A stretch of 64,000 bases of DNA from NCBI GenBank assembly GCA_963708075.1, contig OY970194.1, positions 736,001 to 800,000 of the forward strand. The letters run 5' to 3'. A program made the position numbers and the translations under genes. The notes beneath the pieces were generated by a model. The model ran no database searches, was not told where the DNA came from, and worked only from the letters and a program-made list of their open reading frames with translations. Shown piece by piece: positions 9,562 to 64,000 of this stretch (position 1 is its first letter; every line of letters begins with the position of its first letter). The stretch is from Sedimentisphaerales bacterium (GTDB taxonomy: Bacteria; Planctomycetota; Phycisphaerae; Sedimentisphaerales; Anaerobacaceae).

Positions 9562-10920
9562 ATGAGCACGCAGCGACCCACTGAGGGGAACGATCTGAGG
9601 CAGCGCACCTTCTGGCTGATCCGGCTTCGGTGGCTTGCCGCCGCCGCCGTGGCACTCGGCACGTTTGTGTGTGCTCGCATCTTTCACATGCCGGTGCAGG
9701 AAACGCTGCTGTACACAATCTCCGCATTGCTTTTTCTCTACAATGCCGCCATTCTTACCCTTTTGAGGCGTTTTGGTGACGCGGAGCACGGCGGGCGGGA
9801 GGTGAAATGGGTGATCGACTTCCAGATCTCCACGGATCTCGTCATCCTTACGCTCCTGCTGCACTCTTCGGGTGGCCCGGAGAATCCGCTCGTATTCTTC
9901 TTCATCTTTCACATGATCATTGCGAGCGTCCTTCTGTCGGTGTGGGAGAGCTACTTGCAGGCGACCCTGGCCGTGCTGCTTTTCGGTCTCCTGCTGCTGT
10001 CCGAATCTACCGGGCTCGTCTCTCACCATTGCCTGAAGGGATTCATCAAGCATTGCCGCTACGAGGAGGGAGCCTATCTCGGGGCCATGTTTGTCGCTTT
10101 TGCGATCACCATCTACCTAGTCGTGTACATGGCGAGTTATGTCGCCGTGAGACTCAAACGGGCGGAAGAGGCGCAGAAGATCGCAAACGAACGGCTTCGC
10201 GAAAAGGATCGCATCAAGGATGAGTACGTTGCGCACCTGACACATGATATCAAAGGCCACCTCGCGGCCATACAGAGTTGTCTCAGTGTCGCAGTCACGG
10301 ATTCGCTCTCGCCCCCGGCCGCCGAGTTTGTTCACCGGGCGTACGGCCGGACACAGAAACTGACCGGCTTTGTTCGCATGCTCCTGAGATTGACGCGGTT
10401 GAAGCTCGACGGGAGGCTGGAGATGGAGGCTTTCTCCGTGCCTGAGGCTGTTCGAGAAGCCACCGAGGCGGTTCGGCCCACAATGGAGCAGAAGTTCCTG
10501 CGTCTCGAATGCTCGCTCATCCCGGAGGCGACTGCCTCCGGGCACGCGGGCTCCTTCAAAGAAGCCATCGCTAACCTGCTGCTCAATGCCATCCGGTATA
10601 CCCCCGAGCACGGCACCGTCTCCGTGCGGGTGGACGTGCAGGCGGAGTCCGTTGTTGTGGAAATCACCGATACGGGGATAGGAATCCCGCAAGACGAGCA
10701 ACCTCATATTTTCGAGGAGTTTTACCGGGCGAGCAATGCCAGGCAGATGGAACACGAGGGTGACGGCCTGGGATTATCCCTGGTGAAACGTGTCGTCGAT
10801 CTGCACGGGGGAACGATCAATTTCTGCAGCCAGCCCGGCTGCGGCACGACCTTTCACATCATGCTCCCGGTCGTGGCGGAAAAGAGCATTCCAGAAGCGG
10901 TCGGAACCGCTGTCTCTTGA
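9562..10920 (+). CDS. Membrane sensor histidine kinase with a RegB/PrrB-like TM domain
   Basis: LIRLRWLA, about 6 TM helices, SGGPENPL loop, H-box THDIKGHL, NLLLNAIRYT, DTGIGI, IFEEFYR, GLGLSLVK. Confidence 0.93.
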   Translation: MSTQRPTEGNDLRQRTFWLIRLRWLAAAAVALGTFVCARIFHMPVQETLLYTISALLFLYNAAILTLLRRFGDAEHGGREVKWVIDFQISTDLVILTLLLHSSGGPENPLVFFFIFHMIIASVLLSVWESYLQATLAVLLFGLLLLSESTGLVSHHCLKGFIKHCRYEEGAYLGAMFVAFAITIYLVVYMASYVAVRLKRAEEAQKIANERLREKDRIKDEYVAHLTHDIKGHLAAIQSCLSVAVTDSLSPPAAEFVHRAYGRTQKLTGFVRMLLRLTRLKLDGRLEMEAFSVPEAVREATEAVRPTMEQKFLRLECSLIPEATASGHAGSFKEAIANLLLNAIRYTPEHGTVSVRVDVQAESVVVEITDTGIGIPQDEQPHIFEEFYRASNARQMEHEGDGLGLSLVKRVVDLHGGTINFCSQPGCGTTFHIMLPVVAEKSIPEAVGTAVS

Positions 10921-11106
10921 TTCGCCGTGTGAGCCAGGTGCTTTGCTTCGCTCAGCATGACAAACAGAGGGCTGTTCGACCACGAAACGTAGTCGCACAC
11001 GGCCGTGTTTCAAGCATCGAATGGCGTGGCATTCTCCGGGGCGATAGCCTATAATGCGCCGGCAGTGTTCGGTCTGATATTGTCTGGTTCATGCTGGAGG
11101 CCCGTC

Positions 11107-11586
11107 GTGATTGGTCCATTGTCCGGTGAGTGGTGGTTTCTTGTGGTCCTGGGTCTTTGCGCGGGTGTGGTCAGCGGCACGCTGGGACTGGGCAGCGGGA
11201 TCGTGGTCATTCCGGCCCTTGTCCTGCTCGGCGGGTTCGAACAGAAATCCGCGCAAGGTACGGCTTTGGCGGTGATGGTGCCGATGGCCCTTGTTGGAGC
11301 GATTCGGTACTGGAGAAACCCGCAGGTTGAGCTCAGCGGCATCGTGATTCTGCTGCTGGTGTTGGGAGCTGTGGCCGGTACGCTGGCAGGAACGGAATTG
11401 GCCGGCCGATTGCCTGCCGGCACTCTACGAAAGATTTTTGCCCTGGTTTTGATGATCGTAGCGATAAGGATGTTCACCGCCTCACCGCGGCCCGTGAACA
11501 TGCATCAGGAGGAAGGTCCGACCAACCAGTCGAGTCCGGAAGCGGCTGAACGTGGAGGTATCAATGACTCAGCAACACAACGGTAA
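11107..11586 (+). CDS. TSUP/TauE-SafE family small membrane transporter
   Basis: AGVVSGTLGLGSGIVVIPAL and AQGTALAVM motifs with 4 TM helices. GTG start at 11107 with GGAGG RBS. Confidence 0.88.
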   Translation: MIGPLSGEWWFLVVLGLCAGVVSGTLGLGSGIVVIPALVLLGGFEQKSAQGTALAVMVPMALVGAIRYWRNPQVELSGIVILLLVLGAVAGTLAGTELAGRLPAGTLRKIFALVLMIVAIRMFTASPRPVNMHQEEGPTNQSSPEAAERGGINDSATQR

Positions 11587-12322
11587 CGGACTTGTGCGAA
11601 TTTTCAGTGCCCGGGCATGTGCGGCGCCGCTGGAAAAGGCCGCCAAGCTCTTCGAGCAACAGACCGGCATCACAGTGGAGATCAGCGTGTGCAGCCGTCA
11701 CTGTGCCAAACCCGTGGCTGAAGAGGCGACGGGCGAGACCGGTGGCGACGATTTCCTCCTTGAGATCGCCGATGGAGGCATTCACGATCTGGCCATAGGC
11801 GGCGCGGAATACCTCCTCGACGATGGTGAGGTTAGAGGGATCGTGCAGAGGCGCAAACGCAGGACCATCGGTTATCGCACATCGGCAATCCTCGTGCCTG
11901 CCGGCAATCCGAAGAATATCCGTTCCGTGCAGGACATGGCCCGGCCCGGCGTGCGGATCGCCGTTTCCGTGATCGATTGCCTCAAAGGGCTGTGGGAGGA
12001 TGTCTGTGGCCGGCTGGGACTCGTTGAGCCGATCCGCAACAACATATGCTATTATGCGAACGGCTGCGTCGCCATTGTGGAGGCAGTGGCCACGAAGCAG
12101 GTGGATGCGGCGTTCGGCTGGACATCCTTCCGCCATCTGGAGTCCGACCGGATCGAGGTCATCGAGATGCCGAAAGATCAGCAGGTGGCGAGGGGGACGT
12201 GCGTGGGGATGCTGTCCTTTGCCCATCAACCCGCCTTGGCCGAGCGGTTCATGAATTTCCTGGCCTCGCCCGAGTCCCGGCGATTCTACAAGGAATACGG
12301 CTGGGTCGTCCCCGCTGAGTAG
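11564..12322 (+). CDS. ModA-like (PBP2 fold) substrate-binding protein, Cys-rich, no signal peptide
   Basis: AILVPAGNPKNIRSVQDMARPGVRIA, VDAAFGW and AERFMNFLASPESRRFYKEYGW are typical of molybdate-binding PBPs. GGAGGT RBS before ATG 11564. Confidence 0.8.
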   Translation: MTQQHNGNGLVRIFSARACAAPLEKAAKLFEQQTGITVEISVCSRHCAKPVAEEATGETGGDDFLLEIADGGIHDLAIGGAEYLLDDGEVRGIVQRRKRRTIGYRTSAILVPAGNPKNIRSVQDMARPGVRIAVSVIDCLKGLWEDVCGRLGLVEPIRNNICYYANGCVAIVEAVATKQVDAAFGWTSFRHLESDRIEVIEMPKDQQVARGTCVGMLSFAHQPALAERFMNFLASPESRRFYKEYGWVVPAE

Positions 12323-12337: not shown

Positions 12338-12655
12338 TTACGAGGTAGTGAGTGCGTTCCTGGCCCACTGCAGCGCCGCCGAGGCCCGAGGAAAGCCGAT
12401 CGTCGTGATCAACAGCAGGATCGCCTGGTAGACCTCCTCGTGCGTGGCCCCCGCCTGGACCGCCATCACGGCATGTCGCTGCAGGGCGGTAATCTGGTTG
12501 GCCGCCCCGGAAATGCCCACTTTGATCAGCTCCCGCGTCTTGCGGTCGAGCGGCCCGGACTCCGCACAGGCTTCACTCAGCCTCTGATGGGCCTCCCACA
12601 CATCCGGGTATTCCTTGACGAAACTCTGAAAATGCTCCGGTAAGGTCTCTTTCAT
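12338..12655 (-). CDS. Carboxymuconolactone decarboxylase/AhpD-like protein
   Basis: GPLDRKTRELIKVG...H...AGATHEEV...TTIGFP pattern; no CxxC. Confidence 0.88.
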   Translation of the reverse strand: MKETLPEHFQSFVKEYPDVWEAHQRLSEACAESGPLDRKTRELIKVGISGAANQITALQRHAVMAVQAGATHEEVYQAILLLITTIGFPRASAALQWARNALTTS

Positions 12656-13365
12656 CGTTCAACTCCGTCAGTGTCTCTGAACATCAAAGCCACAGCCAGC
12701 TCGCGGGCTTTCTGCGTTCTGAATGTGCGTTCGACAAACCCTCTGGCCTCGACGGCATCAATGCCACTGCCGCGTTCACCGACTCTCGCCAGCCACTCTG
12801 CATCCCAGAGAATCTTCGATTCCATGCTGTCCTCGACCTCTCCCCGGCAATGAGTCTCGATGATTCGACAGATGTGATCCGCCGGTTCAGCGTCCACACC
12901 ACATCGGGTGAGGATCCCCTTCACGGTGACTGAATTCTCCTCCGTCAGTGGAACTTCCCGGGCGGGGCATGGGCCGCCGATCGCGTGGAGAATCGCGGCC
13001 GCATTGACGGCACGAGCGTCGCCTCCCTCGCAGGACAGGATTTCCTGGGCGTTCCTGAAGACGGCAAGGGCGTGATCGATCGTCCGCTCATCCCGGCCGA
13101 AATGGCCTTTCATCTCCTTGATGAGTTTCTTGCAGAGGATGCTCTGCGGGTCCATCACCGCGCCAAGGCATTGCTCCGCATGCTGGCACCATTGGGCACA
13201 GCCGAGGTCCAGGCGGGGATTGACGATGACCTTTCGGCAGTGGGGGCACTTGACGCTCGGCTCGTCCTTCCAGAACTCTACCGCGGTCGCACAGTGCGGG
13301 CACTGGGCGTCAAAGATATCACCTGACTTCCAGAACCTCAGGTCCTGGCCCGGACATCTGACCAT
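12652..13365 (-). CDS. Zn-ribbon plus HD-like domain protein
   Basis: N-terminal CPGQD...CPHC...EFWKDE...CPHC...NPRLDLGCAQWC...EQC, then HALAV...AAILHAIG...ILWDAEWL (HD motif reads HA). AGGAGG RBS before ATG 13365. Confidence 0.8.
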   Translation of the reverse strand: MVRCPGQDLRFWKSGDIFDAQCPHCATAVEFWKDEPSVKCPHCRKVIVNPRLDLGCAQWCQHAEQCLGAVMDPQSILCKKLIKEMKGHFGRDERTIDHALAVFRNAQEILSCEGGDARAVNAAAILHAIGGPCPAREVPLTEENSVTVKGILTRCGVDAEPADHICRIIETHCRGEVEDSMESKILWDAEWLARVGERGSGIDAVEARGFVERTFRTQKARELAVALMFRDTDGVER

Positions 13366-13481
13366 TTCACGGTCCTCCTGCGACACAACGATCACTCTGT
13401 CTGTCGGCTACTCATCACGTGCTTACTTGTACGCAGGTGACCGATGCTTGTTTGGCAATGTTGCCTCAAGTCGCCTGTCGC

Positions 13482-15954
13482 TCAGGATTTCGACAGTGCG
13501 GGCGCTGGGGCCGGCTTGCGGGGTTTCTGATTTTCCGCACAGAACCTGGCCATCAGCTCCTTGGCGATGCGAGTTCGTTCCGGCGAGCCGTCCATTTTGA
13601 TAAACGCGTCTGCCAACTCCAGCAGTCCGGGATCGGCGGGATCGTCGCCGTAGTGCAACGCCGGATTGACAAACCCGGCATCCATGCCGCACTCGATCGC
13701 TCTCGCTGCATAGGCCCGGCACACACCGATAGCCCGGCCGGGGAGCTCGCCGGCGGCTGCATCGATTCTAAGAAGACAGTGGGATCGTTTCGTGGTTGGA
13801 TCGGTCCGGAGTCTTCTCATCGTCTCGAACGCACTGTACGTGCGTCCGCGACCGCCGGCGAGCGTCGGCTCGTCCTTAACCAACGGCACGGCCACCGGAT
13901 CAAAGAAGATTTGCCCGGGGCCGAAGCCATGTTGATTGACAGCTTTCTCGAAGAGTTGTCTGGCGGCATCACAGGCGTCATCTACGCCGGAGATACCGCT
14001 GATTGGGTCGCCAAGCAGGGCGACGAAGTTGAAGTCGTGCTCTCCCTTGAGAGCCATCAGCCTGTCGGCTGTCCTGGCCCGAATGGAGCTCAATAGTGGC
14101 GTTCTGACTGGCTGATTCGTGTTGTACCATTCCTTCAGGCCCGCGATCAGGGCGTCGTCAAAGCGGCTGTCAATGCACACCGGCACCCCGCGACCGCATT
14201 GGCGGACCAGGCGGACGTACTGCTTCATCATCTTGACGGCCAGTTGTCCTTCCTGGTCGCTGATCGCATCGACGTTCACGGCGATGTAGTCCGCCCCGTC
14301 GTCGGCCTGGCTCTGGATCAACGCTTTGATATAGCCCATGGGACCGGCAGATTGGTGGAACGCCGCTTCACCCAAATCGAGGATCTCTTTCATTACTTTG
14401 CCCGTCTTCGGATTCGAGGCGTTGACCTGATCGCCAATCGAGATCAGAGGGCTCTTCTTCGTATGATCCCTGCTGAACAGGTAGTTGAGGATAGACGACG
14501 TGTGCCGCAACTCCGGGTTCTCGCGGCCGGTTGATTGTTCCTCTCAGACGCTGTATGCCGTCATGCTCGGCGACGGCGGCATCGTAGATCTTCTCGCCTA
14601 TACAAATCTTGTCAAAGTTGTTTCCGCAGCGTCCATCGATCGTGGAGTCGCCGCAGGGGGCGTTGCTCAATCCTTTCTCACAGCCACCCATCGTGCAGCA
14701 TCCGAAGTTCTCCGGCAGGTAGCAATCGCCGCAGTCCTGGCACTCGAAAGCCGCGTACTTGATCGCTTTCTCCATCATGGCGAACGATCTGTATGCGAAG
14801 CCCGTTCCTTTTCCGGCCCCCACCAGGTGCATGAGGCCGCGACCCGCTTTGAAGCCTCCGTGCTCCGGGTCGAGGATCAGGCGGTGTGTCAGGTTGAAGC
14901 ATCGCTGTGCGAGGCGTTTCTTTCGTTTGCCGGGACTCGTTCGGCGGCCCGCCTCATCGTAGAGGTAGAAGCGATCCGCCCCGGGCCAGCAGAGATTGTC
15001 TTTGTATTTCTCCCAATCGCCACCGATTTGCTCGGCTCGGCGAAGAATCTTCAGAAATGTGTCAAAATCGAGCAATCCGCCGACGTCGGCGCCCGCCGCC
15101 CCGATGGCCTTATACATCGCCACCTGTTGCGCCGCTCGCTCGATGTGGTCCTCGATCTTCTCTCGCTGCAACTGAGCGAGCAGATCGTCGCTGACGAAGC
15201 AACCGGGGAGCTTGCCGTCATGCATCAAGCGAGGCGCAGGAGTCAGCGTCGTGAGCAGATACACGTTTCCCAGGACAGGGATGTCGATGTGAGTCTCCTG
15301 GAGGTACTGCATCAGCTCCAGGGACTTTCGCCAGTCGTAGCCAAGCTGCGTGATGAGGCATCTGGCTCCGGCGGCGGTCTTCTTTTCCATTTTATAGTAC
15401 TGCTGCATCTGTGAGGCTTCGGAGTACTTGAAGGGCGACACGGCAGCGGCGGGGAAGAACTGGGTGACGCTGTTCCACTGTCCCGGGCTCGCTTTCAGGT
15501 ATGCGGCGTCATTCATCCGCTGGATGAGCTGCAGCAGGCCGACGGACTCGACCTCGAAGACGCCCTGGGACCGGACCGGCTTGTCCCCGGTCAGGGCGAG
15601 TACGGACTCGACTCCGCGAGCGCGGAACGTGACAAGCGAGCTGGTGATCGCGTCGCTGTTGTGGTCTTTGCAACTCACGTGGGGAATGAAATCCAGCGGT
15701 CCCAGGAGGTCCGCCGCTTTGATTCGCGTGAGCACGTCCGCCGGCTCCAGATTGGCCACACCGCCCGGGCTCTGCGGCGCCGTGACGCCAACGAAATCGA
15801 AGCTCTGAGGAATGCTGTCCGCGCCCGCCTCCTTCGCGGCCTTCAGAAACTTCTCGATGGGGGCGAAATTGAACCCGGGACCGGCGGCCAACTCCGCCAC
15901 GATGACGAATTTTGATCTGTCGGTCAGACTTTTTGCCAGACTTTTAGCCTGCAT
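13482..15954 (-). CDS. metF: Methylene-THF reductase (MetF) fused to a MetV-like Cys-rich domain and a pterin-binding methyltransferase-like domain; apparent frameshift near 14520
   Basis: MetF barrel (PHVSCKDHN, LALTGD, AAVSPFK, ITQLGYD, PGCFV) and a CQDCGDC...CEKGLSNAPCG...GRC..C domain. Removing one base in CGCGAGAACCCG restores PRNPELRHTSSILNYLFSRDH and continues into an AcsE/MetH-like TIM barrel (ISIGDQVN, GADYIAVNV, CIDS, IFFDP). Confidence 0.85.
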
Positions 15955-16780
15955 GTGTGTACCTCCCGTTATTGTCGATCCGAATCCTCGTAGGGTCTGT
16001 ATAGATGTTGATCTTCCCGTTCCGGACGAATCCGCAAAGGGTGATATTCCACTTCTTGGCGGCGGTGATCGCGTAGGATGAGACGCCTGAGACGGCGACG
16101 ATCAACTCGATGCCGGCGCGGGCGGCCTTGGTCACGATTTCCAGACTGACTCGCCCGGAGAGCACGAGGCCGCAGCCTCGCATCTCGCGTTTCATCAACA
16201 GGCACTTGCCGATGGCCTTGTCGAGCGCGTTGTGCCGGCCGATGTCCTCGGCGAACGAAAGAATGGCGCCGTCGCGGTCGAACAGGGCCGCCGCGTGTGA
16301 GCTGCCCGTCAGCGCGAACGTTGCTTGCATCGGCCGGAGGTTCTCGACGGTTTCAAGGAGCAGCCCCTCGGACACTTCCAGTGTATGCGGGCATGCGGGC
16401 ACGTCCGACAGCATCTTCTGAATGTTGCGGACGCCGCACATGCCGCAGGAACTCGCCACGATGAGATTCCTTGCAATGTCGAGTTGAACGGGCCTCTGGA
16501 TCTCGATCCCGACGACATTCGGCAGATCATCCTTTGTCGCAATGGCCGTGATCTCATCGGCGCTGCGGATCATGCCCTCGGAGAAGATGAACCCTACAGC
16601 CAGCGCCTCGACATCGGACGGCGTGCACATCACGGTGAAGCTGCCGACGGTGTGAATCATGATAGTCAGCGGCTCCTCGACGATGACATAGTCGGCCACC
16701 GTTTCTACATGCGAGGCCTGATGGACGCGATGGATATCCACACGGTTCGTCGCTCGGCGCGTCATTAGCAGATCTTTCAT
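15944..16780 (-). CDS. fdhD: Formate dehydrogenase accessory sulfurtransferase
   Basis: VEEPL, MCTP, SSCGMCG, TGSSHAAA, EDIGRHNALDKAIG, SGRVS motifs. ATG 16780 overlaps the fdhA stop. Confidence 0.95.
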   Translation of the reverse strand: MKDLLMTRRATNRVDIHRVHQASHVETVADYVIVEEPLTIMIHTVGSFTVMCTPSDVEALAVGFIFSEGMIRSADEITAIATKDDLPNVVGIEIQRPVQLDIARNLIVASSCGMCGVRNIQKMLSDVPACPHTLEVSEGLLLETVENLRPMQATFALTGSSHAAALFDRDGAILSFAEDIGRHNALDKAIGKCLLMKREMRGCGLVLSGRVSLEIVTKAARAGIELIVAVSGVSSYAITAAKKWNITLCGFVRNGKINIYTDPTRIRIDNNGRYTHAG

Positions 16781-22400: not shown

Positions 22401-22573
22401 AGCCCCAGGACCTCGAGTCTTTCGCGAAACTTCGCCGCCACGTCCGCCGCTCCGAGCGCCCTGCACCCGGTCATGCAGATCAGGACTCTCGTGGTGTGTT
22501 TCCGCGCTTCGTCCTGGAGTCGGCTGTGTAGTTGCTCGATGGCCTTCAGAGATCGGATCTTGGGCTGTGACAT
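19489..22573 (-). CDS. HydB/NuoF-like flavoprotein fused to a GltD/NfnB-like NADPH-FAD module; apparent frameshift near 21024
   Basis: Trx-like [2Fe-2S] domain, GLRGRGGAGF, NADEGDPGAFMDR, GAGAFVCGEET, ESCGKCTPCR. Deleting one base in AAGAAGAGCC restores KKASLCGLGQTAPNPV. Then CQHACPAG, CGRVCDHPCE, GSGPAG, GGGNAAID, YRR, FAGGD, CLRCD. Confidence 0.9.
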
Positions 22574-22576
22574 TCG

Positions 22577-49294: not shown

Positions 49295-49299
49295 GTGCC

Positions 49300-53348: not shown

Positions 53349-53352
53349 CCCG

Positions 53353-54342: not shown

Positions 54343-55209
54343 TTGGCTTCGCTTCCCCCGTCCCCGGCTGCGCCGGCTCAGCAGGCTTAAGCAGGCTGGG
54401 CATGTGAAATGTTTCATAACGTGCGACGAGATCTGCCACCTCGGCACTCATGAGGAAAGCGGCCCGGTCCTTTGTGTATCCCAGCGAGGTATAGGGAAGG
54501 AACGCCTTCTGCTGGCTGTGGCAGTCGCTGCAGCGGACAGGTGTTTCAATGCAGCGTCTGTGAATGAATTCGTTGGCAAGCACCTTCTGTTGATCGCTCA
54601 GCTTGTCCCGTCGCTTGAAGTACTCGACAGCGAACGCCTCCTCCTCCTCAAAAGTCACCGGTCGGGGGTCGCCTTCGGAGTCCTTCAGCGGGACGATCTT
54701 CGCGCCGTACTCGCCCCAGAGCTGTTCCGACATATCCGGGCTTGGGCACAACTGCCCGTCGGCGATGTTCGACCATGCGAAACGAGCAGGCGCAAGGTCT
54801 CCTTCTCCCGGACGTGGCAAACCTGGCAGGAAATGAACAGGTTGTGCATATTGAGAAACGCGCGCACCTGGGGACTGTTGGAGTGAGGCGTCTGACCATG
54901 ACACTTGATGCAGAAGTTGTATTTGTCGGCCTCGTACCAGCGGCCAATGTGGTGGAAATGGCCGGGCAGTCTCGGCTCCAGCAACTCCCACTCCCCGAGA
55001 TACCGCACGATCTTCTTCTCCGTGAGCGCCACGACGCTGTCGAAGATTTCCATTTGGGCAACTTGCGTGTCCCTGCCGGCCAGCGGGTCGCCCAGCGTTC
55101 CGACGAGGAACTTGGTCAGCCAGACGGCCGCGATGGCCAGGAGCACGCCCCAGAACCCAACGTATAGGGCCAACAGCAGCTTTTTCGAGAGGCTTGGTTT
55201 GTGACTCAT
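54329..55209 (-). CDS. Membrane-anchored triheme c cytochrome; apparent frameshift near 54803
   Basis: N-terminal TM helix, CIKCH, CQVCH. Adding one base in GAAGGAGAC joins GDLAPARFAW...CSDCH...ETFHMPSLL. Confidence 0.82.
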
Positions 55210-57065
55210 GACACTGCCTCCTGGGCCGCAATGAGACCGTTCAACTCATCCCCGTGTTCCTCCGCCAGGACCCGCGGCGAGATCTTCCCGTTGAGCACCA
55301 TGCCGGACAGCGGCGACAATCCTGGTCTTCCGAGAATTCCCGGGATGTGTACGAGAGTGATATGCGCGACGGCCAGAAGCGACTCGTATGTGTGGGCCAG
55401 ATACGCGATGTTCAGCAGCCAGCCCGGGAACAGGCGGCTCGACAAGCTCTCGGCCCACAGGAGGATCCCTGTGATGCCCAGGAGCCCGATACCCCAGAAT
55501 AGTCCGAGATATTCAAGCTTCTCCTTCCAGCAGAACCGGCCGTGGTTGGGCCGCTTGGGACTGAGGAAAAAGACGTACTTCACTAGCGCGATCAGATCGC
55601 CCAGGTCGCGGCGTTGGGGGATCATCGGCAAGACCAGCACTCGTCGGATGAAGACCCTGAGGCCCCGCCTGTTATCGCGCCGCATGGAGCGCCGGACGTT
55701 CCAGAGAATCATGCCCACGTGAAAGCCAAACCCGACCAGCATCGCCACACCCGCAATGCGATGAATGATCGGTGCGACGTGGATCCCGCCGAAAAGGTCG
55801 TAGAGCGCCGGCGCCCACGACGCCTGCGGGAATTTCATGGGGAATCCGGTCAGGCACAGGACCACGAAAAGGATGACCAGAGACGCATGCTGTATCTGGT
55901 GTCCGCGCGTGAAGCGGCGGATTCCGCACTCTGCGGCCGCCTTCCTCTCAGCCAGTTCCAGAAGATGCTCGATTTCCTTCTCCGCCTGCCGGCTTGGGAA
56001 CAACTCGCGGATCAGGCCGAGCACGTTGAGCGTCAGGATGGGCAGCAGGATACCGAGAGTTGCCAACACGAAGAATAGCGCGACAGCAAACTCGAGCGGG
56101 TGGGTCCGGGGATTGCGAGTGGCATGAACGTCAAAGGATGCCAGCGCCGGCGTGGCGGAATCATGGCAATCCTGTGTGCTGCAGGTGGCGGAGCGATTGG
56201 CGGAATGGACCGAGGAGCGAGGGTCCGTCCTGGAGTGCATCTCGTGCACGCTGTCTTCCCTGGCGTGACAATCCAGGCAATCGGGCGCCATGGCCGAGCC
56301 AAGCAGGACGGCTTTTCCATGGTAGGTCTCCAGGTAGCTGGAGACCACGTCCGGCAGCCCGTGGCGCTTGGTAAAAGCGGCATCTGCATGGCAACTGGCG
56401 CACATGGCAACCACCTCGCGCGAATCGCGGGCCTTGTGCAGACGCGTCGTCACGTGAGAGTAGAAGTATCGCACGAAGTTCTCATCCGTGTGGCACAGGG
56501 TGCAGCGATTGATGGCATGCTCCGAAACGCCGGCACGCATCTTCTTGAAGATCGATATGGGCCGGAACAGAGGGATGTCGTGGCAGTCTTTACACTGAGG
56601 AAAGTCCTCCAAATTTGCATGCGGCACGCCATTGGCATCCATCGGCGCGTGCACGCTTTCCTTCAGGGCTGTTTCCACTTTCGTATGAGTGAACAGAATC
56701 TCGCGGGTGGGCTCCTCAATGTGACACTCGCGCAGGCAGTTCACCGGCTTGGCATTGTCATGCGGTATTTCCTCGATATCCGCGTGGCAGCCCGTACAGG
56801 CAACGCGTGCATGCGGTCCCCGATTGAAGAGCGTCTCGTCCACATAGAAGAGGCGATAGGTGCCTTGCTTGTCCACGCGTGCCAGCCCCCGGAACCGGTG
56901 GCACATGAGACAATTCTCCGGGTCCGCGGCGCGCAGCGGCTGCGACGACATCAGGACCAGTATGAGTGCAAACAAGGCCACCGCGGTCTGCCGGCTGCAC
57001 TTCATCGAGTCCCCTGGAGGACTCACGGCGTCGCTGGGTTGGTTCAACATGGATGACTGCTTCAT
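55206..57065 (-). CDS. Multiheme c / cytochrome b fusion (CbcL-like quinol oxidoreductase)
   Basis: 6 CxxCH plus CLRECH and CSTQDCH, followed by a TM helix and an FdnI/HydC-like cytochrome b domain (RFTRGHQIQH...LTGFP, IHRIAG, EKLEYLGLFWG, AHTYESLLA...VH). GAGGT RBS before ATG 57065. Confidence 0.9.
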   Translation of the reverse strand: MKQSSMLNQPSDAVSPPGDSMKCSRQTAVALFALILVLMSSQPLRAADPENCLMCHRFRGLARVDKQGTYRLFYVDETLFNRGPHARVACTGCHADIEEIPHDNAKPVNCLRECHIEEPTREILFTHTKVETALKESVHAPMDANGVPHANLEDFPQCKDCHDIPLFRPISIFKKMRAGVSEHAINRCTLCHTDENFVRYFYSHVTTRLHKARDSREVVAMCASCHADAAFTKRHGLPDVVSSYLETYHGKAVLLGSAMAPDCLDCHAREDSVHEMHSRTDPRSSVHSANRSATCSTQDCHDSATPALASFDVHATRNPRTHPLEFAVALFFVLATLGILLPILTLNVLGLIRELFPSRQAEKEIEHLLELAERKAAAECGIRRFTRGHQIQHASLVILFVVLCLTGFPMKFPQASWAPALYDLFGGIHVAPIIHRIAGVAMLVGFGFHVGMILWNVRRSMRRDNRRGLRVFIRRVLVLPMIPQRRDLGDLIALVKYVFFLSPKRPNHGRFCWKEKLEYLGLFWGIGLLGITGILLWAESLSSRLFPGWLLNIAYLAHTYESLLAVAHITLVHIPGILGRPGLSPLSGMVLNGKISPRVLAEEHGDELNGLIAAQEAVS

Positions 57066-57073
57066 GGAATACC

Positions 57074-58159
57074 TCACTTATCGTGACACACGACGCAGAC
57101 TTTGCCTTCGCGAGCTCGCAGTCGATGCATTGCGGCCTGTTTCGGCTCGGCACCGAGGGAGCGAGGGTTCGCATCCGGCAGGAGTCCTTTTTCGTGGGGA
57201 TTGTGGCAGGTGTAACACGCGATGCGGCCATTCTCATCGAAGGGGATGGCACGGGGGGCTCGCCGCACGGTACTGGTGTACTTCAGTCGCTGCTCGAACG
57301 ACAACCGCAGCTTTGGCTGCAACTCGTAAGCGGAAATGTGCCACAGCAATTCCGCCGGAGGAGTTGTCCCCATGTGCGAGTGGGTGGGGTGATTTTTGAC
57401 CATCGGATGGCAGTTCAAACAGACCTCGGACGACTTGTCCCGCAGCGTGTGGGGCGCTGCCTCCTCCTGGTAAAAGTTCACGTCCGGCACATCGGCATGA
57501 CACCAGACGCACGTGTCCGTCTTGGCCCGCTTGGCTTCCACTTGGTCGTGAGCATTGAAGGGGCGACAGTCCTCCGATGCATGGCAGTGCGAGCAGAACA
57601 CCATGGGGTTGGATGCCTGCCACCCCCGCAAGAGATAATGACGGGGCGTAGAGTCAGGCGGATCGGCCTTGCAGTCACGGCTCACGTCGTGGCAGGTCAG
57701 GCAGCCGAGCCGCCCATCCTGGAGGGGGAATTCGGGCAGCATTCGTCCAGCGATTGCGGTGCTTGGTGTCAAATTCACCGGGTGAACCTCGCGACTAGCA
57801 CGCCGCCCGTCATGGCACGATTCGCACAGTTGTACCACATCCCCATCGAAGTGCAGATTGCCCCCTGTGGCGGACGCGTGACACGCCACGCATAGCGAGG
57901 AGTCTCCGTGGGGATTCTCAAGGGCGAGTTTTTCCTCTACGCCTGTGGAGATCGACCTGATGGCAAGCACTATTATCAATGCGAGAGTTATCCATGAGCC
58001 GCGACGGGAGATGATAGTCGAGGATTTTCCTGTGGATTCAAACAGACGCGGCAATCCCGGTGTCTCACAGGATTGCCGCGTATTGTAAGCGACTGAATTT
58101 GCTACGGTTACTCCACTATTAACCACATTCTTCTTTACCTGCTTCAGTGGATGCGGCAA
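57074..58159 (-). CDS. Octaheme c-type cytochrome (start uncertain)
   Basis: 8 CxxCH motifs (CVACH, CESCH, CLTCH, CSHCH, CVWCH, CLNCH, CYTCH, CVVCH) after a hydrophobic segment. The 5' 130 nt are AT-rich and may be non-coding. Confidence 0.85.
   Translation of the reverse strand: MPHPLKQVKKNVVNSGVTVANSVAYNTRQSCETPGLPRLFESTGKSSTIISRRGSWITLALIIVLAIRSISTGVEEKLALENPHGDSSLCVACHASATGGNLHFDGDVVQLCESCHDGRRASREVHPVNLTPSTAIAGRMLPEFPLQDGRLGCLTCHDVSRDCKADPPDSTPRHYLLRGWQASNPMVFCSHCHASEDCRPFNAHDQVEAKRAKTDTCVWCHADVPDVNFYQEEAAPHTLRDKSSEVCLNCHPMVKNHPTHSHMGTTPPAELLWHISAYELQPKLRLSFEQRLKYTSTVRRAPRAIPFDENGRIACYTCHNPHEKGLLPDANPRSLGAEPKQAAMHRLRAREGKVCVVCHDK
58046..58081 (-). terminator. GC-rich hairpin downstream of the OmcB-like gene (partial terminator or mRNA stabiliser)
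   Basis: Perfect 12-bp stem ACGCGGCAATCC / GGATTGCCGCGT with a 12-nt loop, followed by CTGTTTG on the minus strand. Confidence 0.55.
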
Positions 58160-58161: not shown

Positions 58162-60264
58162 TTACGGACGCACCAACTTGCTCGTATCGACGGTCACCTT
58201 CGTGCCCAGATCGGCTATACTGTCATTGAGGATCTGAATCATGTACTTGCCGTTATGTGCGAAGGCTCCCGGATCCTTTTGTGAGTACTGGTAGTTGTAG
58301 GCGGCCTGGAGCAGTCGCGGCGTCCAACTCGCATACTTGGTCTCACCTGCGTCCACCTGGCCATTGCCGTTGGCATCGGCAAAGAAGTACGGATTGGTGC
58401 TTGCGCTATAGACGATTGGGGCCTTCGCTACGTTCGCGGCGTAATCCTGAATCGCAGCGAGGAGTTTCGCCTGGAGGGTCTCGATCTCACGGGCAAGACC
58501 CTCGGTCTTGTTGCCGTCGCCATCGAAGTCCCTGACGTCCTTGCGAATGCTCTTGACACTCTTGGTGCCGTGGCAGAACGCCGTGGCGCAGCTCTCCGTC
58601 TGCACTTCGCCGGTATGCGTCTCGTGGCACTCCGTGCACACATCGAAACTACTCACGTGGGCGAAGCGTCCAAGGTAGGTCTTGCCTGCATATTCGTAGG
58701 CGCCCTTGGCCTGCGTGCCGAACAGCGTCGCACCGGCGGCGAAGTAGTGGACGTTACTGAAACTCAACTTGGTGGACACGGTATCAAGATCGAGTCCGGC
58801 GATCTTCGTGTTTACGCTGACTGTGGATTCGCGGCCCTGATGGCAACTGATGCACAGGTTGCTGTTCAAGTCGCCCGTATCGAGCTTGGCGCCGCTGGGG
58901 AACAGGGCGGTCTTGACTTCATACCGAGTGAACTCGGGCATGGCGTTGTGGCAGGTCGTGCACATCAGGCCATTGGAAAGCGGCTGCGACGCAGTGACCG
59001 CCTCTTGCAGGTAGAACGGCAGGCCGGTGGCCGAATGGCACTTGCTGCAACTGCCGGAAACCTTGCCGTCCTCATCCCAGTGCCGGAACTGCTCATGGGA
59101 GCCGGCGAAGTGGCCCGCGTCATCCCGCGTAAGCTTGGCCACGAGGGTGGGGTCCAGGTCCTCGATGGAATCGAAGAGCAACTGGATCATGTACTTGGCA
59201 TTATGAGCGAACGCCCCGGGGTCTTTGACAGAGACTTGGTAGTTATAAGCCGCCTTGAGCAGGCGAGGCGTCCAGGGGGTGTACTTGTTGGCGCTCTTGG
59301 CCTCATTGGCATCGGCTACGCCATCTCCATTCGTATCCTTGAAGAAGTACGGATTTGCACTGGCGTTGTAAGCGATGGGAGCCCCGGCCTTGGTGCCATA
59401 GGCCTGAATCGCAGCATATAGCGCGGCTTGAAGACCCTCGATCTCGCCCGCGATGCCCTCCAGCGTGTCGCCATCTCCGTCGTAATCGTGCAGGGAGCCC
59501 ATCATCCGGATGCTCTTGAAGTCTTCCTCTTTCTGGACGGCAACGTGGCATGTGGCGCACAATTCGATGCGCACTTCCAGGCTATGCTGATCGTGGCAAT
59601 CAATGCAGGTATCGACGCCCTGCACGTGGGCGAACTTCACGTCGTATGATTTGCCGCTGTACTGATACCCACCCTTTGTGATGCCGCCGTAGAGGGTAGC
59701 CGCGGCCGCTTTGTAATGAATGTTCTTGAAGGAGAGCTTCGTGCTGGCGGTATCCGGTTGGTTCGGATCGGCCGATGCAACGATGGCGCTATCGATAGAC
59801 AGCCCGGACTCGCGTCCCTGATGGCAGACCATGCATCGGGCCTCGGCTCCGAGGTCCTTCACCTCAACGCCGGAGGGGAACACGACGCTGGTCAGCTCGC
59901 TGGTCGCCTCATTGTGGCAGGTCTCGCAACCGATGACCGTACCAATGGGAGCGGGAGCATCCACGACGCCGGGAGCACTGCCATCGGCGCCGAGGTAGTC
60001 CTGGTATCCGCCGGAACTGTGACATCTGGCACAGCTCGCGGAGACTTGTGGCGGGTTGTCGGCGTCCCAATGGCGAAAGGCTTCCGCCGTAGCATCTGCG
60101 TGGGCCGACCCCGCCCAAAGCGCTTCGTAGAGCGGGATATCCACCGAGTGGATTCCCAACTCATCCGCCATCAGCGAGGTCGCTCCGATCAACAGGATCG
60201 ACGCCGCAAGACAGCACGTCCATTTTCGAACCAACGTCTTTGATGTGCACCCAACCTTCATCAT
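58162..60264 (-). CDS. Decaheme cytochrome c, OmcB/OmcC-like, built from two pentaheme repeats
   Basis: Signal peptide, 9 CxxCH plus CATAFCH. Two copies each of FRHWD, CHQGRES, NxHYxAA, NPYFF and DPGAFAHNxKYMIQxLxDSI. Confidence 0.88.
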   Translation of the reverse strand: MMKVGCTSKTLVRKWTCCLAASILLIGATSLMADELGIHSVDIPLYEALWAGSAHADATAEAFRHWDADNPPQVSASCARCHSSGGYQDYLGADGSAPGVVDAPAPIGTVIGCETCHNEATSELTSVVFPSGVEVKDLGAEARCMVCHQGRESGLSIDSAIVASADPNQPDTASTKLSFKNIHYKAAAATLYGGITKGGYQYSGKSYDVKFAHVQGVDTCIDCHDQHSLEVRIELCATCHVAVQKEEDFKSIRMMGSLHDYDGDGDTLEGIAGEIEGLQAALYAAIQAYGTKAGAPIAYNASANPYFFKDTNGDGVADANEAKSANKYTPWTPRLLKAAYNYQVSVKDPGAFAHNAKYMIQLLFDSIEDLDPTLVAKLTRDDAGHFAGSHEQFRHWDEDGKVSGSCSKCHSATGLPFYLQEAVTASQPLSNGLMCTTCHNAMPEFTRYEVKTALFPSGAKLDTGDLNSNLCISCHQGRESTVSVNTKIAGLDLDTVSTKLSFSNVHYFAAGATLFGTQAKGAYEYAGKTYLGRFAHVSSFDVCTECHETHTGEVQTESCATAFCHGTKSVKSIRKDVRDFDGDGNKTEGLAREIETLQAKLLAAIQDYAANVAKAPIVYSASTNPYFFADANGNGQVDAGETKYASWTPRLLQAAYNYQYSQKDPGAFAHNGKYMIQILNDSIADLGTKVTVDTSKLVRP

Positions 60265-60694: not shown

Positions 60695-62490
60695 ATGGGG
60701 CGTCTGATGATCCTTGTGTGGTTCATATACGGTTTGGCGTTCTTCGTCCTCGGCCTGATGATCCTCATCTACCCGAAGAAGGGTAGCAATTTCGACCTGG
60801 CGCGGCATATCTGGCTGGTCGGGGCGTTCGGCATCGTACACGGCGTGAACGAATGGCTCGACATGTTCATGGCTATCGGAGGACCGCTTCCGCTCGTGCT
60901 TGTTGAATTCGCACGGATGTTCACCTTGCCTGTCTCTTTCTTCTTTCTGGTCCAGTTCGGAGTTGCCACGCTCTCAAGAGATCTATCGAAGCCCCGCCTG
61001 ATGCGGGTGATTCCCTGGCTGTTGGCTGTCGCATGGCCGATGCTCCTCCTGACGAGCAAGCCGGACCACAGGCTTTTCATGGCAGACATCTGGTCCCGCT
61101 ACCTGCTGTGCGTGCCGGGCACCCTTCTTACGGCCTGGGGCCTGTTCTCCTACGCGCCCGGCTTCAGAGCCATGAGGCTGTACTCGGTTACGAGGAACCT
61201 GACGATCGCAGCGGCCACGTTTCTTGTGTATGGCGTGTTTGCGGGCTTGGTCGTGAAGAAGGCTGACTTCTTCCCGGCCACAATCCTGAACTACGAGAAC
61301 TTTATCTCCTTGACAGGTCTTCCGGTTCAGTTGTTTCGGACTGTCTGCGCGATTGTAACGGCTTGGAGCGTCGTCCGGATGCTGGACGTGTTCCGGTGGG
61401 AGACGCAGGAGACCCTGCGGATCAGCGAGGTGCGGTGTGCGACGGTTGCCTCGGCCATGCCGGTCTTTCTCTTCATGGTCGATCGCAACACGGTTGTCAC
61501 ATTCATCCAGGGCAAGGGTCTGGATGTACTTGGCCTGCGTGCTGAGCAGGTCCGGGGCCGACTCGTGCGCGATGCGTTTCCGTCCGGCGAGCAGCTCACG
61601 GAAGACTGCCGGCGGGCCCTGTCCGGCGAGCAGTTCAGCACGACCGCCTGTCTGGGTAGTGCATCCTTTGAGATCTACTACTCTGCTCTCAGAGATCGGG
61701 TGAGTAAGGTCATTGGTGTCGTAGGGGTGGCTCTCGACGTCAGCGCCAGGATACAGACGCAGCGGGAGCTGGATGAGTACCGCAGAAAACTGGAGAAGCA
61801 TGCCCGGGAAGCGGCCGTCGGAGTCCTGAGTGCAACAGTGGCTCAACAGGTCGTGGAGCCGCTCTCTGTGACACAACTGATACTGGAAAAAGCCGTTGCT
61901 GATATGAGCGACCCTAATTTGACGCAAACCGTACGCAGCGGTATCAGCAGGGGGCTCTCGGAGATACTGAAGGCACAGGGTACTTTGACGCGGTTCGTGG
62001 ATCTTGCACATCCGGGTTCTGCGCCACCGAGCAGCCGGTAGGGATCTACCAGATCGCCAGGCGAACGATGAGCGTGTTTGCAGAGAGTGCGCAGCGCCGT
62101 CACCTGCTGATTGCGATCAAAGAGATGGATGTCGTGCCGGTGATGACGATTTCACCGCGGGAGGTGGAGCAGATCTTCTACCATCTGATCCAGCGGGCCG
62201 TGGATGCTGCCCGCGGGGAGGTGGAGCAGAAGCTGATCATCGATTGTTCGGTGAAGGAGGGGTACGTCGAGCTTCTCTTTATCGACACGTGCGAAGGGCC
62301 CCAGCCGAGACAACTTGAGCACGCGGGCGGTCCAATTCCCGGTAATTTTGAAGAGATGAACGGTTGGGGGCTCGGCTTGGCCGTCGTGAAGCGGATTGTG
62401 ACGGACCATGGTGGCCAGGTGACCGTGGAACTCCCGTCCCAGAGCACCACAGTCTTCAGGGTCCGACTTCCGACCAAGCAAGTCTACTGA
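60695..62490 (+). CDS. Multi-TM sensor + PAS + degenerate histidine kinase; apparent frameshift near 62025
   Basis: About 7 TM helices (FIYGLAFF, HGVNEW), a PAS domain, and an H-box reading VAQQVVEPL. Adding one base in GCGCCACCG joins the 62068-62490 HATPase-like ORF (GLGLAVVKRIVTDHGG). Confidence 0.8.
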
Positions 62491-62737
62491 TCGCTCATGC
62501 AACAGGGCGAATGTAAGCCTCTGTAATCGCAAGGGTTACGGCGTATTGGCTGTTCGTGTGGCCAGGAGGCTGGGGACACCCGGTTGGGGTGTGCGACTAA
62601 ATTGAGGTCTCCCGCAAGCCGAAAACATTTGTGCCTGCGAGCCGTAAGACGTATGATATATGTCCTCAAGTTATCGAATTTGGGATGCTCAGGGGGGCGT
62701 AAAGGACTCGCTGTATCCATCGAGGGTTTCAAAGGCA

Positions 62738-63214
62738 GTGAAAGAGTCAGGCAACAACGTTGAGCAGAGGGTATTGGCCGCCCTGCAGGAGGGCTTGCCC
62801 CGAAGCCGCACACCCTATCACGATCTGGCTCGCAAGATCGGCATTTCCACGGACGAGTTGCTGACCATCCTGGATCGGTGGAAGCAGAATGGCATAATTC
62901 GCCGGCTTGGCGCGGTCGTCAACCACTTTCAGGTGGGCGTGGGTGAAGGCGCCATGGTGGTCTGGAAGGTCGAGCCCGGCCGCGTGGAGGAGGTGGGAGC
63001 GGTGTTTGCCGGATTTCAGGAAGTGAGCCACGCCTATGAGCGGCAGACGACGCCGGGCTGGCAATATAATGTCTATACGATGGTGCACGGAACGGCTCCG
63101 GAGGAAGTCCAGCGGACGGTCGAGCGGATGAGCGAAGCGACCGGGGTCTCGGAGTATCTGATCCTGGCGACTCGCAGAGAATTGAAGAAGGTGGCGCCGC
63201 GGTACATCGAATGA
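62738..63214 (+). CDS. ahbB: Siroheme decarboxylase subunit (AhbB/NirDLGH, AsnC-like fold)
   Basis: LQEGLP..RTPY..LA...GIIRRLGAVVNH...AMVVW...VSHAYER...WQYNVYTMVHG...ELKK. GTG start at 62738 is tentative. Confidence 0.85.
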   Translation: MKESGNNVEQRVLAALQEGLPRSRTPYHDLARKIGISTDELLTILDRWKQNGIIRRLGAVVNHFQVGVGEGAMVVWKVEPGRVEEVGAVFAGFQEVSHAYERQTTPGWQYNVYTMVHGTAPEEVQRTVERMSEATGVSEYLILATRRELKKVAPRYIE

Positions 63215-63250
63215 TCGGGTCGGTGATACGCATGAGAAACGGGATTGCGC

Positions 63251-64000
63251 ATGTTTAACCTGTCCACGTTGGAGGCAATTGTGTTGCTGCTGGTCGTGGT
63301 GGTCCACGCCGCCGCCGGGGGTATGACGGCTATGCAGCTTGTCAGGAGGCACCGGCGATATGAGTCGTTGCTTATGCCCACGATCCTGGCCGCGGTCATT
63401 CTTGACGCCGTTCTGCTCGTGCTCAGGGGGACATCGATCAAGGCGGTTCCGCTGACGAGTCTGTTCGACTCGCTCATCCTGTTAGCTCTCATCTTTGGCG
63501 TACTGTACCTGCTGACCAGGCCGTCAGTCGATCAAGTCTGGTTTGGCTCGGTGATGGTCTGGGCGATCCTGGGCATGGTTCTTGTGGCGGCACTGGTAGC
63601 GAAGCCCGCTTCCCGGCCGCAGGATGTGGCCCGGACACCCTGGGCCGTCGCGCACGCCAGTTTCATGATTCTGGCGACGGCCTCCATCGTGTTTGCGGCA
63701 GCCAACTCCGCTCTCTATCTGCTTGGCAGCTACAGGCTCAAGCACAAGGCAATCTCGCAGGTGCTGGGCCGGATTCCCAATATGGAAACGCTGGTCCGCA
63801 TGCATCGTTTTGGCGTGCGGGCCGGCTTCATCTTGTTGACGGTCGGCATCGTCAGCGGGCTGGGCCTTTCGCTGTTTGACACAGGTATCGCCAGGTGGCT
63901 GGCCGATAGCAAGGTGATCTGCATCATCGGGGCCTGGGGCCTGTTGGGCGCGATTCTGGTAGTGGACCGGTTTGGCCTGCTCAGGGTCAAAGCGCGGGCC
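63251..64000 (+). CDS. CcsA/HemX-like cytochrome c biogenesis/heme membrane protein (runs off the window edge)
   Basis: Open frame from ATG 63251 with many TM helices: PWAVAHASFMILA, ALYLL...RLKHK...RIPNMETL, GFILLTVGIVSG, WLADSKVI. Confidence 0.8.
   Translation, partial: MFNLSTLEAIVLLLVVVVHAAAGGMTAMQLVRRHRRYESLLMPTILAAVILDAVLLVLRGTSIKAVPLTSLFDSLILLALIFGVLYLLTRPSVDQVWFGSVMVWAILGMVLVAALVAKPASRPQDVARTPWAVAHASFMILATASIVFAAANSALYLLGSYRLKHKAISQVLGRIPNMETLVRMHRFGVRAGFILLTVGIVSGLGLSLFDTGIARWLADSKVICIIGAWGLLGAILVVDRFGLLRVKARA

Follow-up and report, generated by a model that had tools for sequence, protein, structure and literature searches.

Wood-Ljungdahl pathway genes and multiheme cytochrome genes share an island in a genus of Sedimentisphaerales

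Do the Wood-Ljungdahl pathway (WLP) genes and the multiheme cytochrome operon that lie close together in a planctomycete genome serve one metabolism? The question arises from a 64,000-nucleotide stretch of a Sedimentisphaerales bacterium (assembly GCA_963708075.1, contig OY970194.1, positions 736,001 to 800,000), here called the window. In our genome set the window is G000:C1:736001-800000, and G000 is a 7.5-Mb single-contig genome (92.8% complete); coordinates without a prefix are those of the window, and relatives carry other G numbers. An initial annotation, made from the sequence alone, had described formate dehydrogenase (FDH), Fhs, MetF, an acs set, kinases, response regulators, cytochromes, and heme-supply genes, all of which we confirmed at the coordinates given, and had suggested that they form a co-regulated module for oxidation coupled to extracellular acceptors or partner cells, or for electron-uptake acetogenesis. 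The parts are of known kinds; the island that they form is real, larger than reported, and conserved in one genus, and it carries two promoter motifs not noted before. In the best reading of its gene content, which has about an even chance of being right, the WLP runs oxidatively in the presence of an acceptor and is coupled to extracellular electron transfer.

Linkage of the two halves in related genomes

Relatives were surveyed in a genus set (24 genomes including G000) and a family set (250 genomes). Within the genus, acsB occurs in 6 of 24 genomes, a CbcL-like cytochrome gene also in 6, and both in 5; an acsB match in G009 (56%, 123 aa; no acsA found) was left out of the WLP tally. WLP and cytochrome genes are adjacent in four of the five congeners that hold both (G000, G013, G005, and G011). 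The gene order is common to G000, G013, and G005, and in G011 the cytochrome operon adjoins HK1-CMD-metF, the opposite (metF) end of the pathway, by a different junction. An rpoB tree (deep-node support, 43-79) placed G000 deepest, G011 separately, and G005, G013, and G007 together, so that the linked lineages span the root of the genus, and it also contained an 11-genome clade without the cytochrome genes and without full acsB; G016 aligned poorly (458 codons, 63%), and its placement is meaningless. The linkage is thus not incidental within the genus, and it fails in other genera.

In G013 and G005, the gap between the halves holds an 11-subunit complex I operon, nuoI-A-B-C-D-H-J-K-L-M-N, without nuoEFG. 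It is co-directional with the fhs-ligase-transferase genes and lies 170-190 bp downstream of the transferase gene; G007 has the order fhs-RR1-nuo. Scanned by 10 subunits, with NuoN recognized via PF00361, this form of complex I was present in 5 of the 24 genomes, comprising five of the six with a CbcL-like gene versus none of the 18 without; in G011 it was not found with the query used. G022 keeps it together with CbcL-like and OmcE genes and has no WLP. SdhB was detected in only 1 of the 24 genus genomes, not a CbcL carrier, and citrate synthase of the Si type, to which the test was confined, in one of five carriers; because of these two results, no oxidative tricarboxylic acid (TCA) cycle is evident. 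With the genus thus largely devoid of SdhB, the WLP is the likely route for complete oxidation of acetyl-CoA.

Across the family, acsB was found in 112 of 250 genomes, among them 12 of the 14 carriers of a CbcL-like gene and 28 of the 40 carriers of OmcE-like genes, counts whose overlap is inflated by kinship and genome size. Fisher tests overstate the association for these two reasons and were given no weight. G084, G113, G132, and G162 have only a bare acs block, whereas fdh, metF, fhs, and the ligase gene are gathered around acs in the genus of G000. Because the WLP is so widespread and the linkage fails outside the genus, we conclude that the WLP is old in the family and that the supercluster is a genus-level assembly. 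The lineage had been described as not known for such a system, which holds for the combination and not for the WLP itself, common in the family. It also counts against the initial interpretation that the WLP is family-wide and that two cytochrome-bearing congeners lack it.

The Wood-Ljungdahl half

The minus-strand genes of this half comprise those for a CMD-family protein and a Cys-rich/HD-like protein (12338..13395), which stand beside metF also in G011 and G279; metF (13482..15954, with a one-base error near 14518), fused to DUF5981 and a C-terminal AcsE-like domain in an arrangement that is continuous in G013 and also present in G011 and G279; fdhD and fdhA (15944..19482), the latter encoding a cytoplasmic FDH alpha subunit with a NuoG-like N-terminus (TIGR01591, 907 bits versus a cut-off of 666); and hylB and hylC (19489..23083), for a NuoF-like protein with a GltD-like domain and a NuoE-like protein (hylB is split near 21022 and continuous in G013). 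On the plus strand follow a DUF3786 protein gene (22769..23962; domain at residues 212-387 of the frame) and cooC-acsA-acsB-acsC-acsV-cooC-acsD-acsE (24323..35561), which encode carbon monoxide dehydrogenase/acetyl-CoA synthase (CODH/ACS) and methyl transfer. AcsA (CODH; TIGR01702, 647 bits against a cut-off of 478) and AcsB (ACS; NF040764, 1062 against 800) both carry the metal-ligand motifs, the corrinoid protein (CoFeSP) subunits AcsC (538 against 306) and AcsD (367 against 280) exceeded their cut-offs, and AcsE (252 against 259) fell slightly below its own yet occupies the operon position.

Further along the plus strand lie genes for a FixJ-like response regulator (35673..36290; 88% identical in G005, G007, and G013), the formate-tetrahydrofolate ligase Fhs (36777..38736, with a one-base assembly error near 37991), an NDP-forming acyl-CoA ligase and a CoA-transferase-GNAT fusion (38752..42785), and the lone receiver RR1 (42819..43235), a partner of HK1 in G279 and G162. 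With FolD encoded at 2.83 Mb in G000, the methyl branch (Fdh, Fhs, FolD, and MetF) is complete. The ligase had been called an ADP-forming acetate ligase; it is an NDP-forming acyl-CoA ligase, its score (506 bits) lies below the acetate-specific cut-off (567), and acetate is its likely substrate. The unrelated spacer between the halves, previously placed at 43.4-48.6 kb, exists and extends from 43285 to 48146, encoding a sialate esterase, a PQQ-repeat protein, and an enolase-superfamily protein; it is here that complex I stands in G005 and G013. The metF end additionally carries plus-strand genes for a TauE-family membrane protein and a solute-binding protein, presumably ModA-like (11005..12322).

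The cytochrome operon and the island beyond the window

The minus-strand operon at 50622-60264 contains 50 CxxCH motifs (24+3+6+8+9) and three CxxxCH/CxxxxCH motifs, which matches the earlier figure of about 53 c-heme sites; the three plus-strand frames of the whole window contain just three CxxCH motifs. It encodes, in coordinate order, a 24-heme cytochrome c (50622..53471), an NHL beta-propeller protein (53353..54447), a membrane-anchored triheme cytochrome (54329..55209, with a one-base assembly error near 54792), the CbcL-like protein (55206..57077), an octaheme cytochrome c (57074..58159), and a secreted nonaheme cytochrome with one additional atypical motif and no lipobox (58162..60264). 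A short repeat element within the 24-heme gene (51690-51727) matches many unrelated contigs, and similar low-complexity inserts are present in other coding frames.

In the CbcL-like protein, six CxxCH and two atypical motifs are fused to an FdnI-like cytochrome b domain (PF01292; FdnI 1kqf_C, E 7.6e-10; invariant His 397, 439, 453, 562, and 577). Geobacter CbcL, with nine c-type hemes and a di-heme b domain of six helices, is a quinone oxidoreductase for low-potential acceptors (PMC9129911). Compared by description, the island protein shares with Geobacter sulfurreducens CbcL (GSU0274) the fusion of a periplasmic multiheme c domain with a cytochrome b membrane domain; it differs in its six canonical plus two atypical motifs versus nine CXXCH, in four hydrophobic segments after the signal peptide (crude hydropathy scan) versus six helices, and in an operon shared with 8-, 3-, and 24-heme proteins. 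We filed it as CbcL-like only, because the heme count of CbcL is not matched. Homologs with 68-80% identity come from records labeled Sedimentisphaerales, Phycisphaerae, Phycisphaerales, Planctomycetota, or, for automatic assemblies, Pirellulales (8 of 16 loci). The host was taken to be a Sedimentisphaerales member, probably of the family SG8-4/Anaerobacaceae. The octaheme-cbcL-NHL unit also recurs at 30-42% identity in Desulfobacterota-type records (L019, L023, and L024), and in the planctomycete records L021 and L022 it stands directly after an OmcE/barrel cluster, where acsB was not found.

The initial annotation had spoken of OmcB/CbcL-type proteins, of which the CbcL-like fusion is borne out and the OmcB identity is unsupported. 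OmcB, which we take to be a lipoprotein with twelve hemes, differs from the nonaheme protein (9 CxxCH plus 1 atypical motif, no lipobox), and PDB searches gave no match for the latter. Among the best 120 of its 5468 homologs, most of them unnamed, the nearest named ones were from Anaerolineae, Abyssubacteria, and Sedimentisphaerales, and none bore the name Geobacter.

The system had been taken to end at 64000. We found that the island spans ∼84 kb with 93 canonical heme motifs and runs 29 kb past the window to G000:C1:829055, adding 43 heme motifs, a beta-barrel, heme genes, and ccm genes; 92 of the 232 heme motifs in multi-motif frames of the G000 genome fall inside it. At 62660..64000 (plus strand) lie ahbB and a CcsA-like gene cut by the window end. 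Then follow, all on the plus strand of G000:C1, hemA and two radical-SAM heme genes (800131-803815); genes for the kinase HK4, a sigma-54 activator, Rrf2, an AhbA-like protein, and a polyprenyl synthase (803994-809698); a NapC/NirT-type decaheme cytochrome, a 409-aa protein, a 13-heme cytochrome, and a TPR protein (809795-814849); an OmcE-like tetraheme cytochrome with its own sigma-54 promoter at 815002 (815184-815804); an NHL lipoprotein, a pentaheme lipoprotein, an outer-membrane beta-barrel (818706-820787), and an NHL protein (815878-821878); and an 11-heme cytochrome with an N-terminal OmcE-like domain, ccmE, ccmF, an uncharacterised gene, and ccmABC (821875-829055).

Matches to PDB entries 7tfs (E 9e-13 and 2.5e-23) and 9yuq were obtained for the tetraheme protein and for the N-terminal part of the 11-heme protein. 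Entry 7tfs is titled 'Cytochrome c', and we take it to be the Geobacter OmcE filament. The tetraheme protein is secreted and conserves the heme motifs and distal histidines of 7tfs, and the OmcE-like proteins are predicted to be nanowire cytochromes that may form filaments. A second OmcE-like locus (G000:C1:6459065-6459971), split and far from the island, has the same sigma-54 promoter and palindrome. For the 693-aa barrel protein, sequence searches of Pfam, NCBIfam, and PDB gave no hit. Its alignment-based AF2 model, used in place of a single-sequence fold that reached pLDDT 32 only, is a nearly all-beta outer-membrane barrel (pLDDT 89) that resembles large barrels of this membrane, with MtrB (6r2q_B; Z 16.0, rmsd 8.4 over 445 residues) tied with TonB receptors. 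Judged by the model, the protein may sheathe hemes or act as a channel for secretion. Other multiheme clusters of G000 lie at 0.267-0.272, 0.462-0.465, 3.91, and 3.954 Mb, with 13+5, 16+6, 8, and 13+5 motifs, respectively.

Kinases and promoter motifs

The module had been portrayed as a single co-regulated unit framed by two paralogous RegB-like, quinone-type kinases. The paralogy was borne out (HK1 and HK2, 44% identical; lone receivers RR1 and RR2, 48%), and a membrane kinase, HK1 (9562..10920, plus strand; loop GGPENPL), does border the WLP genes. The RR2-HK2 pair (48896..50649, plus strand; loop GGIENPF) and the cytochrome operon are convergent, the pair being located at the operon's 3' tail and not at its promoter, in a position that is not conserved; the G011 ortholog of the pair sits by a hyf-like complex (G011:C709:5339-17222). 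A third kinase, HK3 (60695..62490, plus strand), has a PAS domain and is split by one base. The RegB/RegA reference features given in PMC3000548 are TM1 R31, Q38, and a GGXXNPF loop. HK1 and HK2 have the TM1 arginine, with Val in place of Q38 (+7 position), and the loop is exact in HK2 and HK4 (GGTANPF) and ends in NPL in HK1. HK2 scored 103 on the RegB model NF033792, against a cut-off of 350, and the partners of the kinases are lone receivers or a sigma-54 activator, not RegA. As far as their sequences tell, the island kinases are RegB-like, not RegB. A further RR-HK pair of the same family follows a NiFe hydrogenase operon in G000 (G000:C1:3632905-3638375). Because such pairs occur at hydrogenase (G000) and hyf-like (G011) loci, the kinase family appears to accompany redox operons generally.

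The two halves carry different promoter motifs. A 17-bp WLP box, TACGT(A/G)(C/G)TTTCCACAAT, lies upstream of hylC (23116..23132, minus strand), upstream of cooC-acsA (24060..24076, plus strand), and twice upstream of fhs (36335 and 36635, within 36335..36651, plus strand). Built from these four G000 sites, the pattern has only one further match in the genome at up to two mismatches. In support of it, the corresponding promoters carry the box in G013 (4), G007 (4), G005 (2), and G006 (2), and none was present within two mismatches at the cytochrome or nuo loci. It coincides with the presence of the FixJ-like gene, whose product is a candidate binder.

The cytochrome operon is preceded by a sigma-54 -24/-12 promoter (60372-60386, minus strand) and a palindrome, TCTCA-N4-TGAGA (60508-60521, minus strand). 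The sigma-54 site was found at the window operon in 7 of 8 genomes and at omcE in 5 of 7 (chance 0.023 per region), and the palindrome in 5 of 8 and 6 of 7, respectively (chance 0.009); the sigma-54 site was absent upstream of hylC, cooC, fhs, and nuoI (4 to 5 genomes each). In G000, the palindrome lies upstream of no more than three sigma-54 sites, those of the window operon and both omcE genes. Two palindromes also lie upstream of HK1 (9263..9361), as at its G011 ortholog, and RR1-HK1 is located inside the OmcE cluster of G279 and G162; on these grounds we assign HK1 to the cytochrome regulon, even with WLP genes as its neighbors. A relay from HK1 to the FixJ-like WLP regulator is possible. 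Because the halves bear different conserved motifs, we conclude that there is no single regulon, contrary to the co-regulation originally proposed. A sigma-70/terminator scan of 42-51 kb stayed near chance level.

Quinone and other energy genes

MenD was found in 0 of 24 genomes, MqnC above its cut-off in 1 of 5, and MqnE in 0 of 5 tested, and the quinone head-group pathway is missing in most carriers. A MenA-type prenyltransferase was the best match for 5 of the 8 UbiA hits scanned (8 of 14 hits), in G000, G005, G007, and G011; together with the island polyprenyl synthase it would allow salvage of a naphthoate head group. An mqnA/mqnE-mqnC cluster of G000 was rejected as proof of the quinone source, as PF02621 does not track the module (6 of 24 genomes, only 2 of them carriers). 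That locus (L073:12691-18514, at 3.94 Mb of G000) has mqnA and then one frame with MqnE and MqnC domains, adjoined by SDR and RND-transporter genes, and looks like a biosynthetic cluster.

Rnf and FolD were present in all five genomes tested, one of them without the module. Of the genes that the initial annotation wanted sought elsewhere, FolD, Rnf, and a porin-type barrel were thus recovered and menaquinone synthesis through MenD was not. Hydrogenase motifs and acetate-forming enzymes are present, and a motif scan, weak for absences, found no dsr motif. Elsewhere in G000 (7.20-7.24 Mb, L069-L070, and 4.63 Mb) there are a second complex I with NuoEFG-like genes, which adjoins genes resembling, by eye, alternative complex III and an oxidase, and a cytochrome bd motif; low-oxygen respiration is possible.

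Proposed function and alternatives

From the observed gene content, linkage, co-occurrence, and motifs we infer every flux given here. Acetyl-CoA, from sugars or from acetate via the ligase, would be cleaved by ACS/CODH, and the methyl branch would run through MetF, FolD, and Fhs (with a gain of ATP) to formate, which FdhA-HylBC would oxidize to CO2. Reduced ferredoxin/NADH would feed the 11-subunit complex I, whose input in the absence of NuoEFG could be ferredoxin or the NuoEFG-like FdhA-HylBC, with Rnf balancing both carriers. A menaquinone-type carrier, perhaps made from salvaged naphthoate by MenA and the island polyprenyl synthase, would be oxidized by the CbcL-like and NapC-type proteins, and electrons would pass through the periplasmic 8-, 9-, 13-, and 24-heme cytochromes, the barrel, and the OmcE-like filaments to Fe(III), humic substances, or partner cells. 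In the absence of an acceptor, the WLP would serve as an electron sink in the reductive direction. Different regulators would switch the halves, and HK1 may relay to the FixJ-like one. This oxidative reading, which agrees with one of the two functions first suggested, is strengthened by the complex I operon that intervenes between the halves and by the missing TCA enzyme SdhB. A fuller version is decidedly doubtful: that a clade of widespread sediment planctomycetes so far deemed primary fermenters consists of complete oxidizers, that FdhA-HylBC is the missing input arm of the 11-subunit complex I, that the reverse WLP pumps protons and, by way of OmcE-type nanowires, discharges to methanogen partners or to Fe(III) or humics, and that the paralogous kinases, as quinone-type sensors, relay from the cytochrome to the WLP regulon.

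A number of results weigh against the oxidative reading. The promoter motifs differ between the halves and are conserved, the quinone head-group genes are missing as described above, and Rnf, AckA, and the NDP-forming ligase fit ordinary acetogenesis equally well. In G000 itself, the complex I ortholog (74-95%) lies at 3.74 Mb, outside the island. G007, in which the other end is unassembled, shows no linkage at a junction of the G000 type, and G022 and G018 have cytochrome genes and no acsA or acsB with the queries used. In the family, 100 of the 112 acsB genomes lack a CbcL-like gene by the query used, acsB and cbcL are ∼2 Mb apart in single-contig G132 and G162, acsB is 0.8 Mb from OmcE in G279, and >100 kb beyond cbcL is free of acsB in G084 and G113. 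Shared loss of the halves could follow from physical linkage alone. Finally, G. sulfurreducens is reported to need OmcE neither for producing current nor for reducing Fe(III) oxide (PMC13194489).

The alternative that survives best, tenable though unlikely, is that the halves are independent neighbors: the WLP would be a fermentative sink (acetogenesis with Rnf and the ligase), complex I and the cytochromes would respire sugar-derived NADH/ferredoxin, and adjacency would reflect inheritance. It accords with the separate regulons, with a family-wide WLP that mostly lacks the conduit, with the complex I, CbcL-like, and OmcE genes of acs-free G022, and with the portrayal of SG8-4 members as acetate- and H2-producing fermenters in PMC13502194. 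It is harder to reconcile with complex I following fhs in the same direction in G005, G007, and G013, with a linkage that outlasts rearrangement in G011, and with the collection of fdh, metF, fhs, and the ligase gene around an acs block that stands bare in G084, G113, G132, and G162; without SdhB, moreover, no other route of complete oxidation is evident.

Electron-uptake acetogenesis, the other function first suggested, in which the cytochromes would take in electrons supplied by Fe(II), by a cathode, or by a partner and the WLP would use them to reduce CO2, found little support and is improbable. The steps are reversible in principle, and Rnf, hydrogenase motifs, and acetate-forming enzymes are present. 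However, the transfer from quinol to ferredoxin is uphill and needs a separate source of proton motive force, as bioenergetics has established, the host is inferred to be a large-genome heterotroph with its own reductant (7.5 Mb, with neighboring carbohydrate genes), and characterized CbcL works outward (PMC9129911).

More improbable again is that the window operon serves a soluble periplasmic acceptor (a sulfur or nitrogen oxyanion or a humic quinone), or acts as a capacitor, and does not lead to solid acceptors. The octaheme-cbcL-triheme-NHL-24-heme unit lacks its own barrel gene and is found by itself in G132, in G162, and in the Desulfobacterota-type loci, and the nonaheme protein has neither a lipobox nor a solved relative. 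The operon nevertheless has its sigma-54 promoter and palindrome in common with both omcE-like genes, and it directly follows the OmcE/barrel cluster in L021 and L022.

As to the assembly, single-base indels split five window genes (metF, hylB, fhs, the triheme gene, and that of HK3) in comparison with relatives, whose sequences differ there by one base. Independent short-read contigs from public runs mend three of the five (metF, fhs, and triheme), and rpoB is also split in the G000 assembly; for these two reasons we regard the frameshifts as assembly errors. The indels at 14518 and 37991 share a GGTTCTC context, which suggests a systematic base-calling error at a modified motif. Runs X1 and X2 also correct a one-base indel at 48402 in a small DNA-binding-like gene (48287-48728, minus strand). 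Short-read contigs of X1, a run that may be related to the source sample, are nearly identical to the window and cover 29/30 and 30/30 bins of two 20-kb stretches, one per half, with no single X1 contig spanning the junction; the two metagenome runs that contain most of the stretch come from freshwater sediment and belong to a single study. Because X1 covers both halves, G013 and G005 keep the order, and GC content runs from 0.56 to 0.65 without a step, the contig, whose possible chimerism had been raised, is not chimeric. An assembly artefact or decaying island, whether by a chimeric join or by pseudogenes, to which the five split genes might have pointed, is thus largely refuted and has a negligible chance.

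Comparison with known systems

An oxidative WLP operates in complete-oxidizing Desulfobacterota and syntrophic acetate oxidizers, with which the island shares a bacterial CODH/ACS with AcsV, CooC, and DUF3786 and a cytoplasmic FDH. Anammox bacteria, Thermincola, and Carboxydothermus combine the WLP with multiheme conduits in one cell. Unlike in these organisms, the parts are gathered here in one island, accompanied by the 11-subunit complex I in two genomes, in a carbohydrate-degrading Phycisphaerae genus. Rnf-type acetogens such as Acetobacterium woodii resemble G000 in the WLP, the NuoEFG-like partners of FDH, and Rnf; the model Rnf acetogens are not known to have c-type cytochromes or a quinone chain, in contrast to the 93 canonical heme motifs of the island. 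The osc (OmcS companion) cluster has NHL propellers, a large barrel, multiheme proteins, and ccm genes nearby, the same kinds of neighbors as those of the OmcE-like gene, and the tetraheme protein aligns with 7tfs over the heme motifs and flanking histidines. The island departs from these in its planctomycete host, in a second copy fused to seven more hemes, and in a barrel without a sequence match.

In anoxic sediments, such Sedimentisphaerales are abundant and degrade polysaccharides. Should some of them fully oxidize acetyl-CoA with minerals or partners, carbon would be diverted from methane or reach it otherwise. The SG8-4 group has been treated as suppliers of acetate and H2 to methanogens (PMC13502194), and the electron acceptor of a cultured member was called unknown in PMC13127444. 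The island supplies marker genes (cbcL-like, omcE-like, and the nuoD-fhs junction) and two promoter motifs, and it offers for structural work an OmcE-type filament candidate and an unclassified barrel from outside Geobacter. No description of the island was found in the openly readable papers searched; the description of Anaerobaca lacustris may already report some of its genes. PMC4411801 and 10.1101/2021.10.13.464073 were rejected as prior descriptions, having matched on unrelated bin names.

Flanking genes and repeats

Upstream of the island, one row on the minus strand (459-4881) encodes a CHASE2 adenylate cyclase, an M48 peptidase, an SH3 protein, and a metallo-beta-lactamase-fold protein, and a plus-strand gene (5349-9164) encodes a 1271-aa protein with fibronectin-III repeats and a beta-helix domain. 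An identical 26-bp sequence, possibly the end of an insertion element, occurs at G000 positions 861556, 1110445, 2880880, 3059366, 3806303, and 6917649.

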